Virus record (IMG/VR): IMGVR_UViG_3300042197_004429 | Location: 32,001-96,000 of that record | Source: a virus | Length of the DNA stretch: 64,000 nt | Direction: 5' to 3' (one strand) | Shown: one piece after another, positions 26,661 to 43,007 of the stretch | Numbering within the stretch: the stretch's first letter is position 1 | Layout of the letters: each line of letters starts with the position of its first letter | The notes under the pieces: generated by a model | Told to the model about the DNA's origin: nothing | What the model saw: only the letters and a program-made list of their open reading frames with translations | Databases searched by the model: none | Translations under genes and position numbers: made by a program

Positions 26661-27422
26661 ATGATAACCGACTACCACGTTGAAGTTGAAAAAGTTCCCA
26701 GTAAGCCGGGTTGCTGGGACGTTTTGAATGTTAAAATACTCAAGAGTAACCAACAAATAGGTGAATACCAAAGAAACTATCCAAGTTTATACAAAACTTT
26801 CTATCCTTTTGAACAAGATGGAAAAGAATATGCCTTATATTCTAAGGATTATACAGGTACTCGGGTGATGACTTTGCCCGATTGTGTAGACATTTGCGGT
26901 GAAGAGCGTGATGCTTATGGTTTTTGCCCAACTGAGTATTATGTTCCCCCTCAATTTAAAGGAAAATATGGATTTGTGGCTGGTTGTGTGTGGGGTGACG
27001 ATAGTGGTGGTGATAAACTTCAATTTCTTGATCTTGGCCAAATAACCAAAGGAATACTTAAGCGTGAAGACAAGTTTGGATATGTCGAATTAACAGAGGC
27101 TAATTTAAAAGATTGCATTGAAATTTATGATTATGATGATGAAGAAAAAGAACCAACTTGGATTGCTATAAAAGAATTTAAAAGATGCGCTCTACAAGAT
27201 ACAAAAGAAAACATATCCTGGAACCGTCTGCTTGAAGAATTGCCAATTGGTGAAGGGATGCTTAAATTGATGAAGCATCTTGAAAAGTATTGTAAAAAAT
27301 GCGGACTTTACTTAAAAAAGAGAACTTATTTTACTCAAAAAGTTAATGAAGATGGCTCAAAAGAAATGATTGAAAAAGAATTTGAAAATGACGAACTTGC
27401 TTGTAGGTGCAATAATGAATAA
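26661..27422 (+). CDS. Hypothetical protein
   Basis: 253 aa; GFVAGCVWGDD. Confidence 0.7.
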   Translation: MITDYHVEVEKVPSKPGCWDVLNVKILKSNQQIGEYQRNYPSLYKTFYPFEQDGKEYALYSKDYTGTRVMTLPDCVDICGEERDAYGFCPTEYYVPPQFKGKYGFVAGCVWGDDSGGDKLQFLDLGQITKGILKREDKFGYVELTEANLKDCIEIYDYDDEEKEPTWIAIKEFKRCALQDTKENISWNRLLEELPIGEGMLKLMKHLEKYCKKCGLYLKKRTYFTQKVNEDGSKEMIEKEFENDELACRCNNE

Positions 27423-27669
27423 TGAATTAATTGAATTGACAAAAGAAATTATAGATTCGGCCAACCGTTATTATGAAGTTGAGAATCCAGACCGAGAAAC
27501 ACCAGTGATACTAGAAAATATAGTTCTTAACGCCTCCAGAATGCTCAAAATATTAACAAACAAAAAACACGGATGCGAAAACTGCACCTGTCCCACTCTA
27601 GATGGCTACAAAATAACAGGATCAAGTTGTCCAGTTCATGGGCTTCCGATATGTGATTCTTCTTTTTAG
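27415..27669 (+). CDS. Small Cys-rich protein; 3' end altered by element insertion
   Basis: CENCTCP...CPVHG; last codons come from the inserted element under the proposed boundary. Confidence 0.6.
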   Translation: MNNELIELTKEIIDSANRYYEVENPDRETPVILENIVLNASRMLKILTNKKHGCENCTCPTLDGYKITGSSCPVHGLPICDSSF

Positions 27670-27762
27670 TTGATAAACTTTCTTTAGATTGTAGAATAAT
27701 GATAGACTGCAATTTTATCTCCACCACTAGAAAACCCAGTCTTCTTTAGGGGTAAATAAAAT

Positions 27763-29916
27763 ATGAATTATAGAAGATTAAGAAGAACAAAAGATAGAGC
27801 AAGACTTTATTTGGATTTTGATGGTAAATGTGCTGAGTGTGGAGTTGATCTTCAAAAATGGCATGCCGACCATAAAATACCATTTAAGTTGACACGATGT
27901 ACAGAGTATGTTAATATGCAACCATTATGTCCTCCTTGTAATCTTAAGAAAGGCTCGAAAGTGTTAAGTCTTAAAAATAGAAGTTATTATGAATCATTAA
28001 ATCTTGGTTTGCATGTCGATATTGTTCCTTTCCGCATTGGGCAGAGAGGTGCATTTAATTGCATTGTCGAAAAGGTTATGGATAACTCTCAAACCATAAG
28101 CATTGTTCTTCCTACTCGTTATGGAAAGAGTGATGTGATGAGAGCAACAGCAATTGAGCTAATCGAAAGAGGAATCGCAGATTCTGCAATTCTTGCGGCT
28201 CCATGTCGATTTTTGCGGGATCAATTGTGTCGTAAGAAAAAAATTGACGAAATGGTTAATCGGTATACAATTGTAACAAGAAGTCGTCCCATTGCTTATG
28301 ACATAATGGAAAACTTTAGGCTGCCAATCTTTCAGAACGAAGAATATTTTGTTGCTCTCTGCACTCAAATGTTGGCGAATAAAGCAGATGAGATTTGTGG
28401 TTATATTCGATTACGAGTAAAAAAATCTGGGAAACCAGTTTTAGTTTATATTGATGAATCCCACACTTCTTCAGAAAAAAATGTATGGGGTGCTGTGGTG
28501 CCAAAAATTGTCGAAGCTGGTGGCATTGTCACTCTTTCCACAGCGACTCCGTATCGTGATAATGGACAAAAAATTCCCGGCTTCAAATGTGTTGTCGAAC
28601 CAAAACGTGAGCGATTACGTTATGTTCCAAGACAACATGAGGATCCAAGTAAATATTATCTTGATATTTACAAGGATTTAGAAGGAGAAATTAAATTGGA
28701 AGCCGATTATGAATATACATTTAAATCAGCTTGGGCAGAGGGAGATGTTCTTTGTAAAGTTGGTCTTCGTGAGTTTGATGTCATAGTGAAGATTCCTGAT
28801 GGAAATTCTAGTGATCCAGACAAAATGAAGGAATTAAAAATTTCTGAAATGACTCCAACTGAATGTAGTAAATATTTTAGCCGTGTGACTAGGGACACTA
28901 AAGTAATCAAACAAGGAGTCTTTGAACTTGTAAAAAGATTGAGAGAGTATCGGCTGTACGAGCCTCAGACGCAGGCAATCATTTTCTGTGGGAATGATAT
29001 TGACGAAGAAGATGATGGACACGCTAAGCAGATTGCCGCTGAAATAGGTTTTCAAGATACCTCTTTCAAGGTTATTATTGCTACATCTAAGCAAGATTCG
29101 GCTGATGAATTAATTAAGGATTTTGGGGACGGGAAAGGCGATATCCTGATTGTTAAACAGATGGCAAGTTTAGGGATGGATATTCCTCCAATTAAGATTG
29201 GTCTTGATCTATCCTCCGTCCGTACACTTGCTGCTTTTGTGCAAAGAATGATGAGAACTGCCACTATGTGGGGTAAAAATCAGACTGCTCATTTGATAAT
29301 GCCCTCTGATGTCAATGGGCAAGCATTATGGAAGGGATTTATTGAAGAAAATGGTGGAGCAATGACAAGTCATGAAACGACTAAACTTGACACCATAGAA
29401 AAGGATAAGCAAGATCGAGATCCAAGCAAGAAAACATTTGAAGTAGTAAGAACAGAAGATGCGATATTATCCGATTCATGTGGAGATGGAACATCTAGTA
29501 GCTCTGAGTATGATGACTTTGCCCTACCATTGATTCTTGCACTTCCGAAAATTCAAGCGGTTTATAGCGACCATGAACTGGTTAGTTATGGTAAAAAAAT
29601 TGGAAAAGATGCTCTTGGTCGTCTAACTCCTATCGCTAAGGTTCCTACACGAGATATTACCGAGCAGAGAATTCTACTGAAAAACAGGATAGAGAATCTT
29701 CGTAAAGAAATAGCATCTCAAAAATTTCACTATCGTAGCGACACAGAAAGTTGGAGAGCAGAGATGAGGAGTTGTCTTAATAAGGCTAAAAGAAAGTTTG
29801 GAATTGCATTGCAAACAAAGTTAGATAAAATTACCAAAATCGAAACGCTAAACCAAATTGTTGGATTTCTTGAGGAAGAAAAGAATAATGCAACAAAAGT
29901 AGTTGTGCAGGAGTAG
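27763..29916 (+). CDS. HNH endonuclease-SF2 (ResIII-like) helicase fusion
   Basis: CAEC...HADHKIP...NMQPLCPPCNLKKG; LPTRYGKS, YIDESH, STATPYR, GMDIP, QRMMR. Confidence 0.85.
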   Translation: MNYRRLRRTKDRARLYLDFDGKCAECGVDLQKWHADHKIPFKLTRCTEYVNMQPLCPPCNLKKGSKVLSLKNRSYYESLNLGLHVDIVPFRIGQRGAFNCIVEKVMDNSQTISIVLPTRYGKSDVMRATAIELIERGIADSAILAAPCRFLRDQLCRKKKIDEMVNRYTIVTRSRPIAYDIMENFRLPIFQNEEYFVALCTQMLANKADEICGYIRLRVKKSGKPVLVYIDESHTSSEKNVWGAVVPKIVEAGGIVTLSTATPYRDNGQKIPGFKCVVEPKRERLRYVPRQHEDPSKYYLDIYKDLEGEIKLEADYEYTFKSAWAEGDVLCKVGLREFDVIVKIPDGNSSDPDKMKELKISEMTPTECSKYFSRVTRDTKVIKQGVFELVKRLREYRLYEPQTQAIIFCGNDIDEEDDGHAKQIAAEIGFQDTSFKVIIATSKQDSADELIKDFGDGKGDILIVKQMASLGMDIPPIKIGLDLSSVRTLAAFVQRMMRTATMWGKNQTAHLIMPSDVNGQALWKGFIEENGGAMTSHETTKLDTIEKDKQDRDPSKKTFEVVRTEDAILSDSCGDGTSSSSEYDDFALPLILALPKIQAVYSDHELVSYGKKIGKDALGRLTPIAKVPTRDITEQRILLKNRIENLRKEIASQKFHYRSDTESWRAEMRSCLNKAKRKFGIALQTKLDKITKIETLNQIVGFLEEEKNNATKVVVQE

Positions 29917-29917
29917 T

Positions 29918-30186
29918 TTGTTAGTTCAACGAGTTTATAAGACTGAAATCAGTCCAAATAACAAGCAGCGGACTCTCTTGATGAAAAATGCAGGAACGGC
30001 CCGCTTTGCTTACAATTGGACATTGAACCTCAAGAAAACTGCATTCGATAACAAAATCAAAATCCCTAATGCAATCGAGCTATTGACAGGAATTTAAATG
30101 CCTCTTACAATCTTGAGTCGTATAAAAACCATCAGTTTGACGGGAATAAACGCTCACGGAGAAGTAAGATCTGGTCTTGCGAGTAG
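29918..30186 (+). pseudogene. tnpB: Internally deleted tnpB (N-terminal helical region joined out of frame to C-terminal IDRNLNASYNL)
   Basis: AGGAG SD; YKTEISPNNKQRTLLMKNAGTARFAYNW matches the intact TnpB N-terminus; the next frame gives the DRDxNAAxN-type terminal motif. Confidence 0.85.
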
Positions 30187-30302
30187 CAAGATTAAATTGA
30201 CTTCGTAGAAATGAGAATAAAATATGAGATTATCAAATGGTAGCGATTTTGTCTCTACCTAGATTTCCATATATTTTTAGGAACGGTTGGGTAACCCACA
30301 GG
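30128..30302 (+). ncRNA. Putative TnpB omegaRNA (scaffold to 30286, guide ~30287-30302)
   Basis: CCATCA/TGACGG hairpin, CTCA..GAAGT / ACTTC..TGAG nested stem, TCTTGC/GCAAGA and GGTAG/CTACC hairpins; same layout as the 39074-39222 omegaRNA. Confidence 0.65.
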
Positions 30303-30309
30303 TTTTAAA

Positions 30310-30810
30310 ATGGAACGTAGATCAAAAGATGTTTTGGGAATGGTCAACTTTCCCATTGATTCTCAAGAATACTCAAGCACCAATGAAGGCGGAATGTTTG
30401 TTCAACTTTGGTGTTTTGAAGATGATAAGTTCTCTGATGAATCTGTTTATTATGGTTCCACATACAGCACGATGAGCGAAAGCCTCATTGGCACAGATAC
30501 AGAAGTGAACACAGATAATTTTCATGAAATTGAACAAGGCAAAAATTTTATGGATTGGGTACAAAGTTTTGCTCTTGAGGAACAATTGTTTCCTAATATT
30601 AAAAAAGAAGTTGACCATCAATATTTGTCAAAAGAACTCATTGCTTGTGTTACTTTAGGCTGCACAGGTTGGAGCGGCGCTAATAAAGACCATGATTATT
30701 GGCGATGTAAATACGAAGACCTTAATGAGGGTGGTAAATCAATTTATAATTCACTAAAATCAGCTTATCCCAAAGCGAAACTTGTTTTGGTGACTTGGCT
30801 TGACACTTAA
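30310..30810 (+). CDS. Hypothetical protein
   Basis: 166 aa ORF. Confidence 0.65.
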   Translation: MERRSKDVLGMVNFPIDSQEYSSTNEGGMFVQLWCFEDDKFSDESVYYGSTYSTMSESLIGTDTEVNTDNFHEIEQGKNFMDWVQSFALEEQLFPNIKKEVDHQYLSKELIACVTLGCTGWSGANKDHDYWRCKYEDLNEGGKSIYNSLKSAYPKAKLVLVTWLDT

Positions 30811-30824
30811 ATCAGGAGATTTTT

Positions 30825-31517
30825 ATGGGAATGTTTGATTATGTAAAAGTAGAAGATCAAATTGATTTACCAAAACCCGAGTGTTTTGAATCTTTTGATA
30901 AAAATATTAAAGATTTTGAATTTCAAACTAAATCTTTAGAAAATTGTATGAATACTTATTTCTTGTCAAATGACAAACATCTTTACAAAGATGATTTTTA
31001 TGATGAGCAAGATGTTCGAAAACAAAGAAGACAATTAATAGATTTTCACGGAATAATTAAATTTGGAGCGTACCACCCAACAGACTTGGTTGACTATTCA
31101 GTCGAGTATGAAGCAAAATTTACAAATGGAATCTTAGAAGATATCAAACTGGTAGATTGTAAAGTTTATAATCATGAGTCTAGAAAATTAAAAAATGACG
31201 AAATCAAACAACAGCAGGATAGAAAAAGACAAAAATTTTCTTATAAATTAAGAAACTTAATTAGAAAATCTTTGTCTTTTTTTGGAATTCAAAACAATCT
31301 TGTTTTTACAACTCCAGAAGTTGTTTTCTTTGTTAATTCCGACACACCAGAACTAGTAAATTTTAAAAGAACCAAATATGGTTTATATATCGACAACATC
31401 GGAACGGGATTTTACTTTAGGAAAACAGACTATCTTTTTGAAGTTTGTTTTAAAATTTTAGGATTTGGTTTCAAATATAATTGGTACAAACCTGTTAGTT
31501 TTGAGGAATCAAAATGA
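30825..31517 (+). CDS. Conserved phage hypothetical protein
   Basis: AGGAG SD; MGMFDY...FQTKSL. Confidence 0.7.
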   Translation: MGMFDYVKVEDQIDLPKPECFESFDKNIKDFEFQTKSLENCMNTYFLSNDKHLYKDDFYDEQDVRKQRRQLIDFHGIIKFGAYHPTDLVDYSVEYEAKFTNGILEDIKLVDCKVYNHESRKLKNDEIKQQQDRKRQKFSYKLRNLIRKSLSFFGIQNNLVFTTPEVVFFVNSDTPELVNFKRTKYGLYIDNIGTGFYFRKTDYLFEVCFKILGFGFKYNWYKPVSFEESK

Positions 31518-39077: not shown

Positions 39078-39222
39078 ATTACTTGTTGTCCGGTACTCAA
39101 AACTTACAAAAATCTACAAGTAGGTTTTTTGTTTGATTCTGGTTTCTACGACGATCACCTGTTGATTTCTCAACATGAACCTTATCATCTACACCAGCGT
39201 TAATTCCCGTGTACCTCACGGT
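39074..39222 (-). ncRNA. TnpB omegaRNA (scaffold 39222-39090, guide ~39089-39074)
   Basis: CCGTG/CACGG hairpin, CTGGT/ACCAG enclosing GTTGA-GAAA-TCAAC; overlaps the tnpB 3' end. Confidence 0.7.
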
Positions 39223-40302
39223 ATATAATTCTAAATTTTTTGCTGCGTTAAAATCACGGTCAATTTCTAATCCGCAATTGTAGCAAGAATAAGTTCTATC
39301 CGCAAGGGTCAAGTCCTCTTTCTTGTTTCCACAATAAGAACATAACTTTGAACTTGCATAAAACCTATCAGCAACAATTAATTCCTTGCCGTACCAAGAA
39401 CATTTATATTCTAATTGTCTTCTGAATTCATAGAATCCAATATTTGCAATTGATTTGGCTAAATTGTGATTCTTTAACATTCCGTTTACATTCAAATCTT
39501 CAATAACAATTTTATTGTTTGATTTGGTTTTCACCAAACAAGATGTTGTTTTATGAAGAATATCTTTTCTGTGGTTGCTAATATTAAAATGAACCTTTGC
39601 TATCTTTTCTTTCGTTTTTTTTCTTGAATTGCTATCTTTTTGTTGACGAGATAATTTTCGTTGTAATCTCTTTAACTGTTTTTCTTTGTTTTTTAGTTTT
39701 TTTGATGATTCAAATATTTCACCATCACTTGTGATTGCAAGGTGTTTAATTCCTAAATCAACGCCAACAACTTTATTTTCATATTGTTTTTGTTCTGTCT
39801 CTACTTCGTATCGTATTGAGACGAACCATCTGTTTGCTCTTAAAGATATAGTTGCTGATTTAGGCTTGCCTTCTGGGATATAATCATGTTCTTTTAAGTT
39901 TACCCAACCAATTTTTGGCAACTTAATCTTATTGTTTTTCAAAATTATTGGAGCGTCAAGTGTGAATGAATCTTTTTGTCCTTTTTTCTTGAATTTAGGA
40001 AAAGCATTTTGTTTTTTGAAAAACTTCTTATACGCAGTCTCAAGGTTTCTGAGTGAGTTTTGTGGACACCACTTGCTTATTTCTTTAATCCACTTGAATT
40101 CATCGTTCTTTTTAGCGACCAAAATCTTGTGTAATGTAATTGCCGAGGGCTTAATTTTCTTTTCTAATTTATAATCTTCTTGCAACAGAGCCAACGCCCA
40201 GTTATAAACAAATCTTGCAGTTCCAGCATATTGTTTGAATAGTGTTTTTTGTTTATTGTTAGGTTTTAGTTCTATTTTGAAGGATTTATAAATCATTTGC
40301 AA
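39097..40302 (-). CDS. tnpB: TnpB RNA-guided endonuclease
   Basis: VGVDLGIK (RuvC-I), IVIEDLNV (RuvC-II), CSYCG/CYNCG zinc finger, DRDFNAAKN (RuvC-III). Confidence 0.95.
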   Translation of the reverse strand: MQMIYKSFKIELKPNNKQKTLFKQYAGTARFVYNWALALLQEDYKLEKKIKPSAITLHKILVAKKNDEFKWIKEISKWCPQNSLRNLETAYKKFFKKQNAFPKFKKKGQKDSFTLDAPIILKNNKIKLPKIGWVNLKEHDYIPEGKPKSATISLRANRWFVSIRYEVETEQKQYENKVVGVDLGIKHLAITSDGEIFESSKKLKNKEKQLKRLQRKLSRQQKDSNSRKKTKEKIAKVHFNISNHRKDILHKTTSCLVKTKSNNKIVIEDLNVNGMLKNHNLAKSIANIGFYEFRRQLEYKCSWYGKELIVADRFYASSKLCSYCGNKKEDLTLADRTYSCYNCGLEIDRDFNAAKNLELYTVRYTGINAGVDDKVHVEKSTGDRRRNQNQTKNLLVDFCKF

Positions 40303-40916
40303 GTTTCCTTCTTTTTACGATTTTTAGCAGCCCTTCTACTGTATATTTTTGCAGAGAAAGATGCCATTAAAGAAAGAATATCTTCTACTAATTCTTGTTC
40401 ATAAGACTTACCCAAAACCTCTTCTGTCCATATTACATTGACTCCATGCGATTCAAAAAATTTAACAAGATAATCAAACATGAATCTTGTTAATCTATCT
40501 TTGTGTTCAATCAAAACTATATCAATTTGCTTGTTGATGGCTAAGTCCATCATCTTATGAAGTTTTGGTCTTTTATCATTCATGCCCGAAGCAACCTCAG
40601 ATATTATTGAAACTATCACTAGTTTTCTTTTAACTGCCTCTGATGAAAGTCTACTTACTTGTCTATCTAAGTCTCCGTGTTGTTTTTGTTCTCCTGTTGA
40701 TACACGGGCATATATTGCACAACGGTTTTTGACTGTATTTATATCTATAGGACAATCATCACCCGCCAAGGCGTTAATGTCTTCTTGTCTATATCTCCTG
40801 TGTCCCCCGGCAGTGTAGATTGCTTTTATTTTTCCTTGCTTTTCCCATTTTCTCAAAGAATTTTGAGAAGAATGAAGTTGTTCGGCAGCCTTTTTAATTG
40901 GTATAAGTTTGCTCAT
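40293..40916 (-). CDS. tnpA: IS607 TnpA serine recombinase
   Basis: N-terminal MerR-like HTH (TAGGHRRY), YARVST, SGMNDKRPKL, EHKDRLTRF, EDILSLMASFSAKIYSRR. Confidence 0.95.
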   Translation of the reverse strand: MSKLIPIKKAAEQLHSSQNSLRKWEKQGKIKAIYTAGGHRRYRQEDINALAGDDCPIDINTVKNRCAIYARVSTGEQKQHGDLDRQVSRLSSEAVKRKLVIVSIISEVASGMNDKRPKLHKMMDLAINKQIDIVLIEHKDRLTRFMFDYLVKFFESHGVNVIWTEEVLGKSYEQELVEDILSLMASFSAKIYSRRAAKNRKKKETCK

Positions 40917-41068
40917 TCCAACAACTCCTTTTGTTGAAACAATCTAAACCATTGATCGTAAATCTCTTGAAATTCTTCTATAGATGGAATTTCCTCAAGT
41001 TCAAAAGGAATAGGGTGTATTACCCCGTCTTCTGTTTCAAATTCTGTTTTTGTAATTTTGACGATCAT
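40913..41068 (-). CDS. Small acidic accessory ORF inside IS607 (not in ORF track)
   Basis: 51 aa MIVKITKTEFETEDG...QKELLE; ATGA overlap with tnpA. Confidence 0.65.
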   Translation of the reverse strand: MIVKITKTEFETEDGVIHPIPFELEEIPSIEEFQEIYDQWFRLFQQKELLE

Positions 41069-41112
41069 TTTTGGTTTTCTCAAATGAATCCTACCTTTCT
41101 ATATAGTAGTTC

Positions 41113-41140
41113 ATTATAAAAAAATTATAAAATTTGTCAA
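41113..41140 (-). promoter_or_regulatory. sigma70 promoter in IS607 left end
   Basis: TTGACA-16 nt-TATAAT. Confidence 0.75.
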
Positions 41141-41168
41141 ACAATTGTAAATTTTTGTAGAATTTACT

Positions 41169-43007
41169 CTATCTGTTTCCATCCCAGTAATCCAATAATC
41201 CCAAAACATCTTGCCAATCCACTGATTCTTTTGGATAATCGCCTGGATTGCCAAACAAAGGACGATCTTCTTCTCGTCTTTTTTGTGCTGCCTTGAGTCT
41301 GGCCATTTGAGTGCTTAACTTGCTTCCGTACATGCTTCCGGCTGGCGTTCCATCATCGCTTCTGTCTACTTCAGCCAATTCGTCTTTGGTTTTGACATAG
41401 ACTCTTGTTTTTGGATCTGTGATATCGGCACCTTTTTCAACTTTGAAAAAGTTAAACGGTCTTTGGTATGCTTGAACCATCTCTGGTCCATCTTCTCTGC
41501 CGATACCAGAAGAGGTGCTTCTGTTGGGATTTCCCAACTCAAAACTGCTTCTTTTTCTTGTTGGGTTTCTTAAAGGTTGCTGACCACGAGGTCTGCCGCC
41601 CATTGGTTGCTCTTCTGCTTTTTTGCGTGTTCTTGAAACTTTTATCATATAAGAAACCGCAGCCAAATCAGATTCATCTACTAGTTTTCTTTCAAGGCCA
41701 CCCCTTAGTCCACCGTCTACTAAACTTGTTAGTTTTTCTGCCAGTGCTTCGATTGTTCCTTTAAATCCTTGAACTCTTTCTAGTTGTTTTTCAAACTTCA
41801 AGGCACGAACAATCACAGGAATCATGTCAGGGTTGGATTCTGAAGGTGCAGCAAGAGCTTGTCTGTAAGTGATGTTGTACTCTGGTTCTTCGCCTTCTCT
41901 TGATATTCTCAACAAACTAAGAACATATCTGAATACTTTTTGAAAGTCCACAGCGGCCATAACAAGTTCTTGAACTTTGCTTGTTCTTTCTTTTGCTGCT
42001 TCGCCTCTTGATCCTTCTAGGGACACTTCAAACTCCCCAGTTTTGATTGCTTCTTTCGGACCATCCGCACTATTGTATGTTTGCAAGTCTACTTCTTTGT
42101 TGTTGACAAAGTATAATGTTTTAACTGGCGGCATCACATAAGGCATGTTTAATTCTTCTATGGCAAGACGAGTGTAAAAACTGTACGCTGTGCCTCTTAA
42201 AGCTCCATTATAAAATTCTAAATTCTCAGCTACTCTGCTGAATTCACTTTGAGAAAGTGGTTTGCTTCTAGATTTGGCAATTGCCACGTTGGGATCTGGG
42301 CCTTTTGGTGTGTTTTGTGCGATTGCGTCTTTGTCCAATTCAACTGGGTTGGCAGTATCGCTTCCTTGATCTTCTTCACCTTCGGCTGGAAGTGCATCCT
42401 CTATTGCTTCTTCTACGCTTGAATAAACACTTCTTGGATCAGTTTTTCTTGCTTTGTCATTTAAGTAAGAGAAGAGATCTGTTTCCACGCCTTTTTCTTT
42501 GTCGTTTGTTTCTTCCCCTGTATTTGGATCAACCAATACTTTTTCCGCTTGCAACATGATGGCAATTTTTTTTACACTTTTTGTTTTTTTTCTTGCGTTT
42601 AAAACTAAATTCGTAAAGCGGTCCCAGGCTTGTTGATATTTTTTTAAGTTCTCTGTGCGTTGAAGTTCCGCTATGGCTGCTGCTTTTTTCTCTTGTTGCT
42701 TCGCCAGTTCTTTTTCACTACGTTGGTCAACCTGTGATTGAACCAAAGGATCCACTTCTCTTGAAGGTTTTGATGGCTCCTTCATCTGCTCCAGTTCTTC
42801 TGGCGTGTAGTCCACCCATTTTCCATTCACAACTCTGCCTGAATTATGACTGCGAATTGTTCCAGATTCTGGATGAGGATTTTCTTTTGAATATTGAGGC
42901 TTTGGCTCAACTGCTGGCTCAACTGTTGCGTTTGGTTCTACGCCTGCGTCTTTAACAGTTGATTTTTTTGCTTCTAACAATCCCAACATTTCAAAAAAAG
43001 ATAACAT
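41169..43007 (-). CDS. Large hypothetical protein, CTS-like N-terminus; last codons supplied by IS607
   Basis: GAGGAG SD; MLSFFEMLGLLE; 612 aa. Confidence 0.75.
   Translation of the reverse strand: MLSFFEMLGLLEAKKSTVKDAGVEPNATVEPAVEPKPQYSKENPHPESGTIRSHNSGRVVNGKWVDYTPEELEQMKEPSKPSREVDPLVQSQVDQRSEKELAKQQEKKAAAIAELQRTENLKKYQQAWDRFTNLVLNARKKTKSVKKIAIMLQAEKVLVDPNTGEETNDKEKGVETDLFSYLNDKARKTDPRSVYSSVEEAIEDALPAEGEEDQGSDTANPVELDKDAIAQNTPKGPDPNVAIAKSRSKPLSQSEFSRVAENLEFYNGALRGTAYSFYTRLAIEELNMPYVMPPVKTLYFVNNKEVDLQTYNSADGPKEAIKTGEFEVSLEGSRGEAAKERTSKVQELVMAAVDFQKVFRYVLSLLRISREGEEPEYNITYRQALAAPSESNPDMIPVIVRALKFEKQLERVQGFKGTIEALAEKLTSLVDGGLRGGLERKLVDESDLAAVSYMIKVSRTRKKAEEQPMGGRPRGQQPLRNPTRKRSSFELGNPNRSTSSGIGREDGPEMVQAYQRPFNFFKVEKGADITDPKTRVYVKTKDELAEVDRSDDGTPAGSMYGSKLSTQMARLKAAQKRREEDRPLFGNPGDYPKESVDWQDVLGLLDYWDGNR

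Follow-up and report, generated by a model that had tools for sequence, protein, structure and literature searches.

The subject of this work is a 64,000-nucleotide (nt) stretch of phage DNA, referred to below as the window (bases 32001-96000 of the 177-kb IMG/VR virus record IMGVR_UViG_3300042197_004429, estimated to be 74% complete), and within it a block in which a gene encoding an HNH nuclease-superfamily 2 (SF2) helicase directly precedes a decayed tnpB gene and an omegaRNA-like scaffold of an IS607-family insertion sequence (IS). The block is best explained as a composite indel, in which a mobile phage HNH-SF2 helicase gene, standing beside the decayed right end of an IS607 element, was imported together with it as one block; a probability of about 0.72 is assigned to this reading. 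The insert lies at ~27719-30297/30303, between genes and not inside one, since empty sites with these breaks are present in two contigs from independent samples, L005 (Logan SRR31802126, 134 kb) and L026 (SRR31724199). The order on the + strand in 27300-30900 is a 93-aa (amino acid) gene, a 717-aa open reading frame (ORF), a 59-64-aa ORF, ~200 nt without a long ORF and a 166-aa gene. The features are as follows:

27388..27669, + strand: 93-aa upstream phage gene, intact and uninterrupted, C-terminus ...CPVHGLPICDSSF*; DNA colinear with L005 and L026 through 27718
27670..27697, + strand: backbone promoter-like TTGATA-16-TAGAAT, 10/12 consensus matches; putative function
27719..30303 (right edge 30297-30303), + strand: inserted block of ~2.58 kb, from BLASTN and alignments against L005 and L026
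27763..29916, + strand: intact 717-aa HNH + SF2 (RadD/HsdR-like) helicase gene, from Pfam, 197 homologues and an AlphaFold model
29918..30097, + strand: N-terminal piece of the tnpB remnant, HTH_OrfB_IS605 domain only, 59 aa from TTG 29918 with its own AGGAG, from Pfam, NCBIfam and tblastn
30070..30208, + strand: C-terminal pieces of the tnpB remnant in two other frames, IDRNLNASYNLE and then TGINAHGEV...*, from tblastn, three-frame translation and DNA alignment
30083..30111, + strand: promoter-like TTGACA-17-TACAAT on the tnpB deletion junction, by consensus match only (11/12); putative function
30118..30286, + strand: IS607 right end with omegaRNA-like scaffold, ending ...AGGAACGG, from homology to the intact copy and L023 and from a consensus fold
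30287..30303, + strand: flank in guide position, TTGGGTAACCCACAGGT, missing from the empty sites
30310..30810, + strand: downstream 166-aa phage gene, 63 nt past the upstream-gene stop in the sister phages
39091..41181, - strand: intact IS607, the reference for the remnant, with tnpA 40293-40916 and tnpB 39097-40302; 9 kb from the block

The contigs L005 and L026 are collinear with this phage, 91-94% identical to it and free of the block. Their homology to the genome, as determined by BLASTN, ends at 27718 and returns at 30304. In both, the upstream gene natively ends ...LPICDSPF* and is followed by the promoter-like 'TTTAGATTGTAGAAT' stretch seen in the window, and 63 nt separate the stop of the 93-aa gene from the start of the 166-aa gene. 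The alignments give the empty site as ...GACTGCAATTTTAT / TTTATAGG / TTTCAT-ATG, the left-edge letters being ...CAATTTTAT, and 3-8 nt of it have been replaced by the block (...CAATTTTAT / TTTATAGG / TTTCAT ATG). The right edge is ambiguous from 30297 to 30303, and an 'A.AGGTTT' match suggests that it may lie as early as 30298.

The preliminary description of this DNA had placed the junction elsewhere, proposing that CATGG (27640) joined to 30287 restores the upstream gene as ...CPVHG-WVTHRF*. Homologues of that gene end otherwise: P0121 (93 aa, 85% identical) has the C-terminus ...SSCPIHELPICDSPF, i.e. ...HELPICDSPF, and P0122 ends ...CPIHGLPKCD. The ...CPVHGLPICDSSF end in the window fits both, and the empty sites run colinear through 27718. 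The proposed junction is thus contradicted, and the GG at 27639-27640, considered as an insertion point, sits within uninterrupted backbone according to the alignments and BLASTN against the empty sites. Similar words had also been reported near the two ends; the left one, AACTTTCTTTAGATTGTAG, belongs to the backbone promoter-like region and occurs in the empty sites as well. The search for empty sites that had been recommended was rewarded in that such sites exist in two sister contigs, although not at the predicted junction. Searches of JGI metagenomes with the backbone promoter 23-mer, of phage GenBank records by DNA and of IMG/VR with single proteins gave nothing useful.

In a more distant relative (L004, ENA ERZ4214608; 6273-6530 against window 27669-30825), the same spot lacks the 166-aa gene and holds a short stretch apparently encoding a small hydrophobic ORF, before a homologue of the 230-aa gene. 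By this comparison, the locus looks like a variable hot spot.

The first part of the block, described previously as a 717-aa HNH + SF2 helicase gene, is just that. The protein contains the Pfam domains HNH (residues 23-65), ResIII (91-264) and Helicase_C (392-500), all exceeding the curated cut-offs, and the HNH CCCC/H-N-N motif is present together with SF2 motifs I, II, III and VI. The protein keeps each residue that a 30-sequence family alignment shows to be invariant (G121, K122, D231, E232, T260, T262, Q494, R498, C56, C59 and N60). An AlphaFold model (pLDDT 85) has the SF2 proteins RadD and HsdR as its top PDB folds, while a sequence search of PDB returned remote SF2 and HNH matches only (best E 4.6e-6). 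The PADLOC matches to Cas3 are marginal (E 7e-4 across 54 residues in the Walker A region).

The helicase family is large, with 197 matches at E <= 1e-3 among 8,000 scored candidates, and some members lack the HNH domain or have it split off. The nearest relatives (67-70% protein identity) occupy other loci. In particular, L006, the closest relative with DNA (67% identical protein), shares only the helicase gene with this phage (71% nt identity), which argues that the gene moves horizontally between unrelated phages. In 12 of the 15 IMG/VR loci (L009-L013 and L015-L021, e.g. L010:6127-6798), the helicase is followed, often with an overlap, by a conserved protein of ~215 aa that has no Pfam family; this protein was not found in the present genome. 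From gene order, the two are a putative two-gene module, uncharacterised. Genes for DnaB or RecU lie near the helicase in some IMG/VR loci. In L006 (4112-7142), the helicase is preceded by a 224-aa DUF3223 protein and a 58-aa MerR-type helix-turn-helix (HTH) protein, and a GIY-YIG/NUMOD3 homing endonuclease gene lies immediately upstream of the helicase region on the opposite strand.

Nuclease domains attached to an SF2 motor of two RecA lobes are the theme of a known group comprising type I restriction HsdR, RadD-like repair helicases, Cas3 (HD + SF2) and ZRANB3 (SNF2 + HNH). The phage helicase differs in having its HNH domain at the N-terminus and no close sequence relative of solved structure, and it showed no link to methyltransferase/specificity subunits or to a guide RNA.

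The second part of the block is what remains of tnpB. The coupled layout noted previously can be read directly: AGGAG at 29909-29913, the helicase stop at 29914-29916 and a TTG start at 29918 (the alternative ORF start is 29903, and the ORF ends at 30097). The short ORF is the TnpB N-terminal HTH_OrfB_IS605 domain (Pfam E 3e-13); it shares 47% identity with the intact TnpB of this window over residues 3-57 of the latter. After ~55 N-terminal residues, there is an out-of-frame jump to IDRNLNASYNLE (TnpB residues 343-360 by tblastn), and three-frame translation reveals a second frameshift leading into TGINAHGEV.... Only residues ~3-57 and ~343-370 of the reference TnpB are thus matched, across three frames, and ~285 aa are missing, including the WED/REC parts and the RuvC-I/II core. 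The remnant scores 24.6 bits against NCBIfam guided_TnpB (cut-off 100) and is therefore not a full-length TnpB. These results bear out the earlier view of a tnpB that keeps its N-terminus and jumps to IDRNLNASYNL with its RuvC core deleted.

The 16-mer CAACAAAAGTAGTTGT (29891-29906) matches the ribosome-binding region of the intact copy's tnpA at 15 of 16 positions; it is not a left-end relic, because it encodes native helicase C-terminus that aligns with homologues. In these alignments, native helicase sequence reaches to ~3 residues from the stop or closer, so the helicase/IS junction lies within ~10 nt of the stop codon. Joining GG 29910-29911 to 30287 would end the helicase as ...VVVQVG*, which is possible, carries no statistical weight and is not claimed here. 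No parent of the remnant was found in a 1.8-billion-protein library, the best full-length match being 62% over 50 residues; this match is a tnpB-only element unrelated at the DNA level. A search of bacterial genomes for close TnpB relatives gave 41% at best.

The final ~200 nt match, by homology, the intact IS607 (39091-41181) in its tnpB 3' end and right end, and this element provides the reference. Its tnpA (40293-40916) scores 173.5 bits with NCBIfam transpos_IS607 (cut-off 110) and its tnpB (39097-40302) 340.7 bits with guided_TnpB. Elements ~99% identical to it adjoin four different flanks (window, L035, L036 and L037, the last being the same as L023), and all copies of this type in IMG/VR and JGI contigs end ...GAGTACCGG; since four insertion sites fix the same end, this right terminus is secure. 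The remnant and the intact copy both terminate in CGG at the same alignment column, that of the remnant being at 30286. The IS607-type right end with scaffold had thus been placed correctly.

The scaffold of the remnant carries a 22-nt insertion relative to the intact copy. The consensus fold of the two scaffolds has 35 pairs, of which 9 are compensatory, and rests on only two independent sequences; the single-sequence fold of the remnant has z = -2.4. No Rfam family matches either scaffold. By position, overlapping the tnpB 3' end and reaching the terminus, and by homology with the intact copy, the scaffold is a candidate omegaRNA.

Of the promoter-like sites in the region, the best, 30083-30111, falls exactly on the tnpB deletion junction. 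This near-consensus sigma-70-like site is partly made of codons for the conserved TnpB 'IDR' motif. At the equivalent position of the intact copy stands a weaker TTGACC-17-AAAAAT, possibly the promoter from which elements of this IS607 lineage naturally express their omegaRNA. An RNA from the remnant site would be expected to start near 30118, cover the scaffold and run into the 166-aa gene. Since no + strand terminator was found ahead of that gene, the predicted RNA would be the leader of its mRNA. A second promoter-like site belongs to the backbone; L005 and L026 have TTGACA...TAGAAT at this position (TTGAYA-16-TAGAAT overall), and the site faces the 166-aa gene in the sister phages and the helicase gene here. 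The guide-position flank 30287-30303 is unique in the genome, and neither its 18-mer nor the right-end 20-mer of the remnant occurs in IMG/VR.

The IS607 elements have GG at both termini and at the target, no target duplication and subterminal repeats (Chen et al., 2018; PMC6188088), and comprise a serine-recombinase TnpA, TnpB and a right-end omegaRNA/reRNA (guide RNA: Ren et al., 2024; PMC11061315). Compared with such a complete mobile element, the block shows the right-end homology and lacks TnpA, GG at both ends and left-end repeats. A tblastn search of 27300-30500 with the intact TnpA found no match to this serine recombinase with its N-terminal MerR-like HTH, and the HNH-helicase ORF occupies the tnpA position. 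The left junction, CAATTTTAT / CTCCACC, has no GG, whereas the right terminus does (30285-30286). The left edge also lacks a subterminal repeat of the TCTACAAAAAT type, sharing only AT-rich 6-mers with the right end, and lies only 43 nt from the helicase ATG. A 12-nt direct repeat, AATAAAATATGA, at 27755 and 30216 is AT-rich, is about as frequent as expected by chance and was not used. On the other side, the block extends 11-17 nt past the IS terminus (TTGGGTAACCC...), and the empty sites do not contain these nucleotides. Neither the block nor its right end was found a second time in the genome, in IMG/VR or in the JGI metagenomes searched.

The description of the locus as IS607-derived accordingly stands for the right ~370 nt (~29917-30286), but the 2.6-kb block as an IS607 unit with helicase cargo is not supported: two empty sites refute the predicted left junction, the actual left edge at 27719 has neither GG nor repeat, and 11-17 nt lie beyond the right end. 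What the remnant shares with the family is the tnpB start with HTH_OrfB_IS605, the RuvC-III 'IDRxxNA' tail, a GG at the terminus and a scaffold overlapping the tnpB 3' end, all with homologous counterparts in the bona fide IS607 of this genome. It differs in having no tnpA, left end or left GG, in its deleted and frameshifted tnpB core and in being single-copy. The remnant is, as judged from its DNA, a probable fossil and not a transposable unit.

Meers and colleagues reportedly described TnpB elements that have decayed or lost their gene and retain nothing but the guide-RNA scaffold, including stand-alone omegaRNAs and PATE-like minis of IS200/IS605. The remnant resembles these in having shed the nuclease gene but not the scaffold and right end, with an intact TnpB of the same family elsewhere in the genome. 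However, it has no left end and is thus no mini-transposon; an unrelated helicase gene is joined to it, and it forms the predicted leader of the next phage gene.

The preliminary description had further suggested that the helicase is kept with a guide RNA, and that its homologues be examined for a recurrent tnpB/omegaRNA neighbour. Such a neighbour fails to recur. In the 18 helicase loci with DNA (L006, L008-L022, L033 and L034), tblastn found no full TnpA or TnpB, the sole match being one MerR-type HTH in L006, and the precomputed Pfam listings of four further helicase contigs contain no TnpA/TnpB. A tnpB or right-end neighbour is therefore present in 0 of 22 other helicase-family contexts, where the ~215-aa protein is instead the usual companion (12 of 15 IMG/VR loci), and the tnpB beside the present helicase is frameshifted twice. 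The empty sites in the sister phages and the lack of recurrent linkage together mark the adjacency as a one-off.

The history proposed here begins with a phage accessory gene standing by itself. Its product joins an HNH nuclease to a RadD/HsdR-like SF2 motor and belongs to a widespread family of phage helicases, and immediately downstream of the gene an IS607-family element would once have lain. The element would then have lost its left end and tnpA, leaving over the right ~370 nt with the tnpB start, RuvC-III tail, scaffold and CGG terminus. Both parts would have entered the phage lineage as one block by recombination rather than by IS607 transposition into the site, because there are 11-17 nt of foreign flank past the IS end and no IS607 left end. 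Alternatively, the backbone may have diverged at this spot since, instead of the foreign flank having come with the block. Transcription of the helicase gene would now start at the backbone promoter, which in the sister phages serves the 166-aa gene. As the insertion would have taken this promoter from the 166-aa gene, the ~200 nt of the remnant may supply a replacement, and the remnant may be retained because its junction promoter-like site can drive the displaced gene. The helicase most likely acts alone or with host/phage DNA-metabolism proteins, without a guide RNA, and a role in replication, recombination or DNA degradation is proposed.

Several points weigh against this history. Neither a donor with the same block nor a near-identical parent IS was found, and the order of events is for this reason one that we infer. 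The helicase stop abuts the ribosome-binding site and start of tnpB exactly as tnpA does in the intact IS607; this would be a notable coincidence for a random deletion end-point, and one conceivable cause is an aberrant event in which TnpA recombined the left terminus with an internal GG. The scaffold shares its fold with the intact copy, with compensatory changes, and lies behind a near-consensus promoter, so that it may not be simple debris. Finally, the 58-aa MerR-type HTH of L006 shows 45% identity (E 4e-9) with the N-terminus of IS607 TnpA and is thus a second, weak, IS607-flavoured neighbour of a helicase, although it may be only a generic HTH_17 regulator.

The same abutment can be read as the mark of a non-autonomous IS607 derivative, in which the helicase replaced tnpA and the unit moved, now or recently, in trans through a TnpA such as that of 40293-40916. 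The position of the helicase against the tnpB start, the right end intact to its terminal CGG and the presence of an intact IS607 with TnpA in the genome all agree with such a unit. Its left edge at 27719, however, offers neither GG nor subterminal repeat and stands 43 nt from the helicase ATG, the 11-17 nt beyond the right end belong to the block, and further copies are lacking from the databases searched. Moreover, at 47% identity in the TnpB N-terminus, remnant and intact copy are far enough apart to make cross-mobilization doubtful. We regard this explanation as quite unlikely. An orphan guide RNA acting in trans, with the scaffold (30118-30286) expressed from a promoter of its own and taken up by the intact TnpB (39097-40302) while the helicase is a bystander, is unlikely too, if not to quite that degree. 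The homologous scaffold with 9 compensatory pairs, the near-consensus site at 30083-30111 and a deletion that ends just upstream of the scaffold would suit it, and TTGGGTAACCCACAGG... would then serve the phage as a second guide in homing or competition. Against this, the two elements have diverged, as the TnpB N-termini and the 22-nt scaffold insertion show, and the guide-position sequence matches nothing else in the genome, is absent as an 18-mer from IMG/VR and is missing from the empty sites. The transcript would also continue into the 166-aa gene, and the junction promoter may thus exist simply for that gene.

The most far-reaching proposal was a nascent, Cas3-like RNA-guided helicase-nuclease, in which the HNH-helicase uses the omegaRNA, possibly with the 59-aa TnpB HTH stub. 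It draws on the adjacency and on the intactness of helicase and scaffold, and on nothing else; it must contend with the 0 of 22 other family contexts that have a tnpB or omegaRNA neighbour, with the different conserved partner of the family and with the loss of those parts of TnpB that hold the omegaRNA (WED, REC and RuvC). In the model and fold comparison, no RNA-binding module was seen in the predicted helicase, whose SF2 folds appear ordinary (RadD, HsdR). This proposal is very improbable, and it would be just as surprising if helicase and retained scaffold cooperated in any way, with or without the HTH stub or the intact TnpB 9 kb away. Were they to do so, the phage would own an IS607-derived RNA-guided motor-nuclease analogous to Cas3.

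The main value of reading the block as a composite indel is that a tempting false lead is removed, as an RNA-guided Cas3-like helicase from IS607 would have been important. The locus also illustrates cleanly, through its exact empty sites, a hot spot for phage accessory genes. Further, it offers a phage example of a TnpB element decayed to a guide-RNA scaffold, under a strong promoter-like site, in the probable leader of the next gene. The phage HNH-SF2 helicases, a large and uncharacterised family, and their conserved partner are worth study in themselves.

Some further observations concern the intact IS607. The ~99% identical copies beside four different right-end flanks are evident signs of its activity in this phage community. 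The left end of the element is placed from a subterminal inverted match, TCTACAAAAAT, which lies ~20 nt from each tip and relates the two ends of the copy; this end should be taken as provisional. The left part contains a 51-aa ORF (41068-40913, - strand), which lies behind a TTGACA...TATAAT-like site and whose stop overlaps the tnpA ATG. In L035, a 2.7-kb JGI contig, the interior of tnpA is joined to an unrelated GC-rich stretch of 121 nt (L035:1-121), a join that may be an assembly chimera or a truncated insertion.

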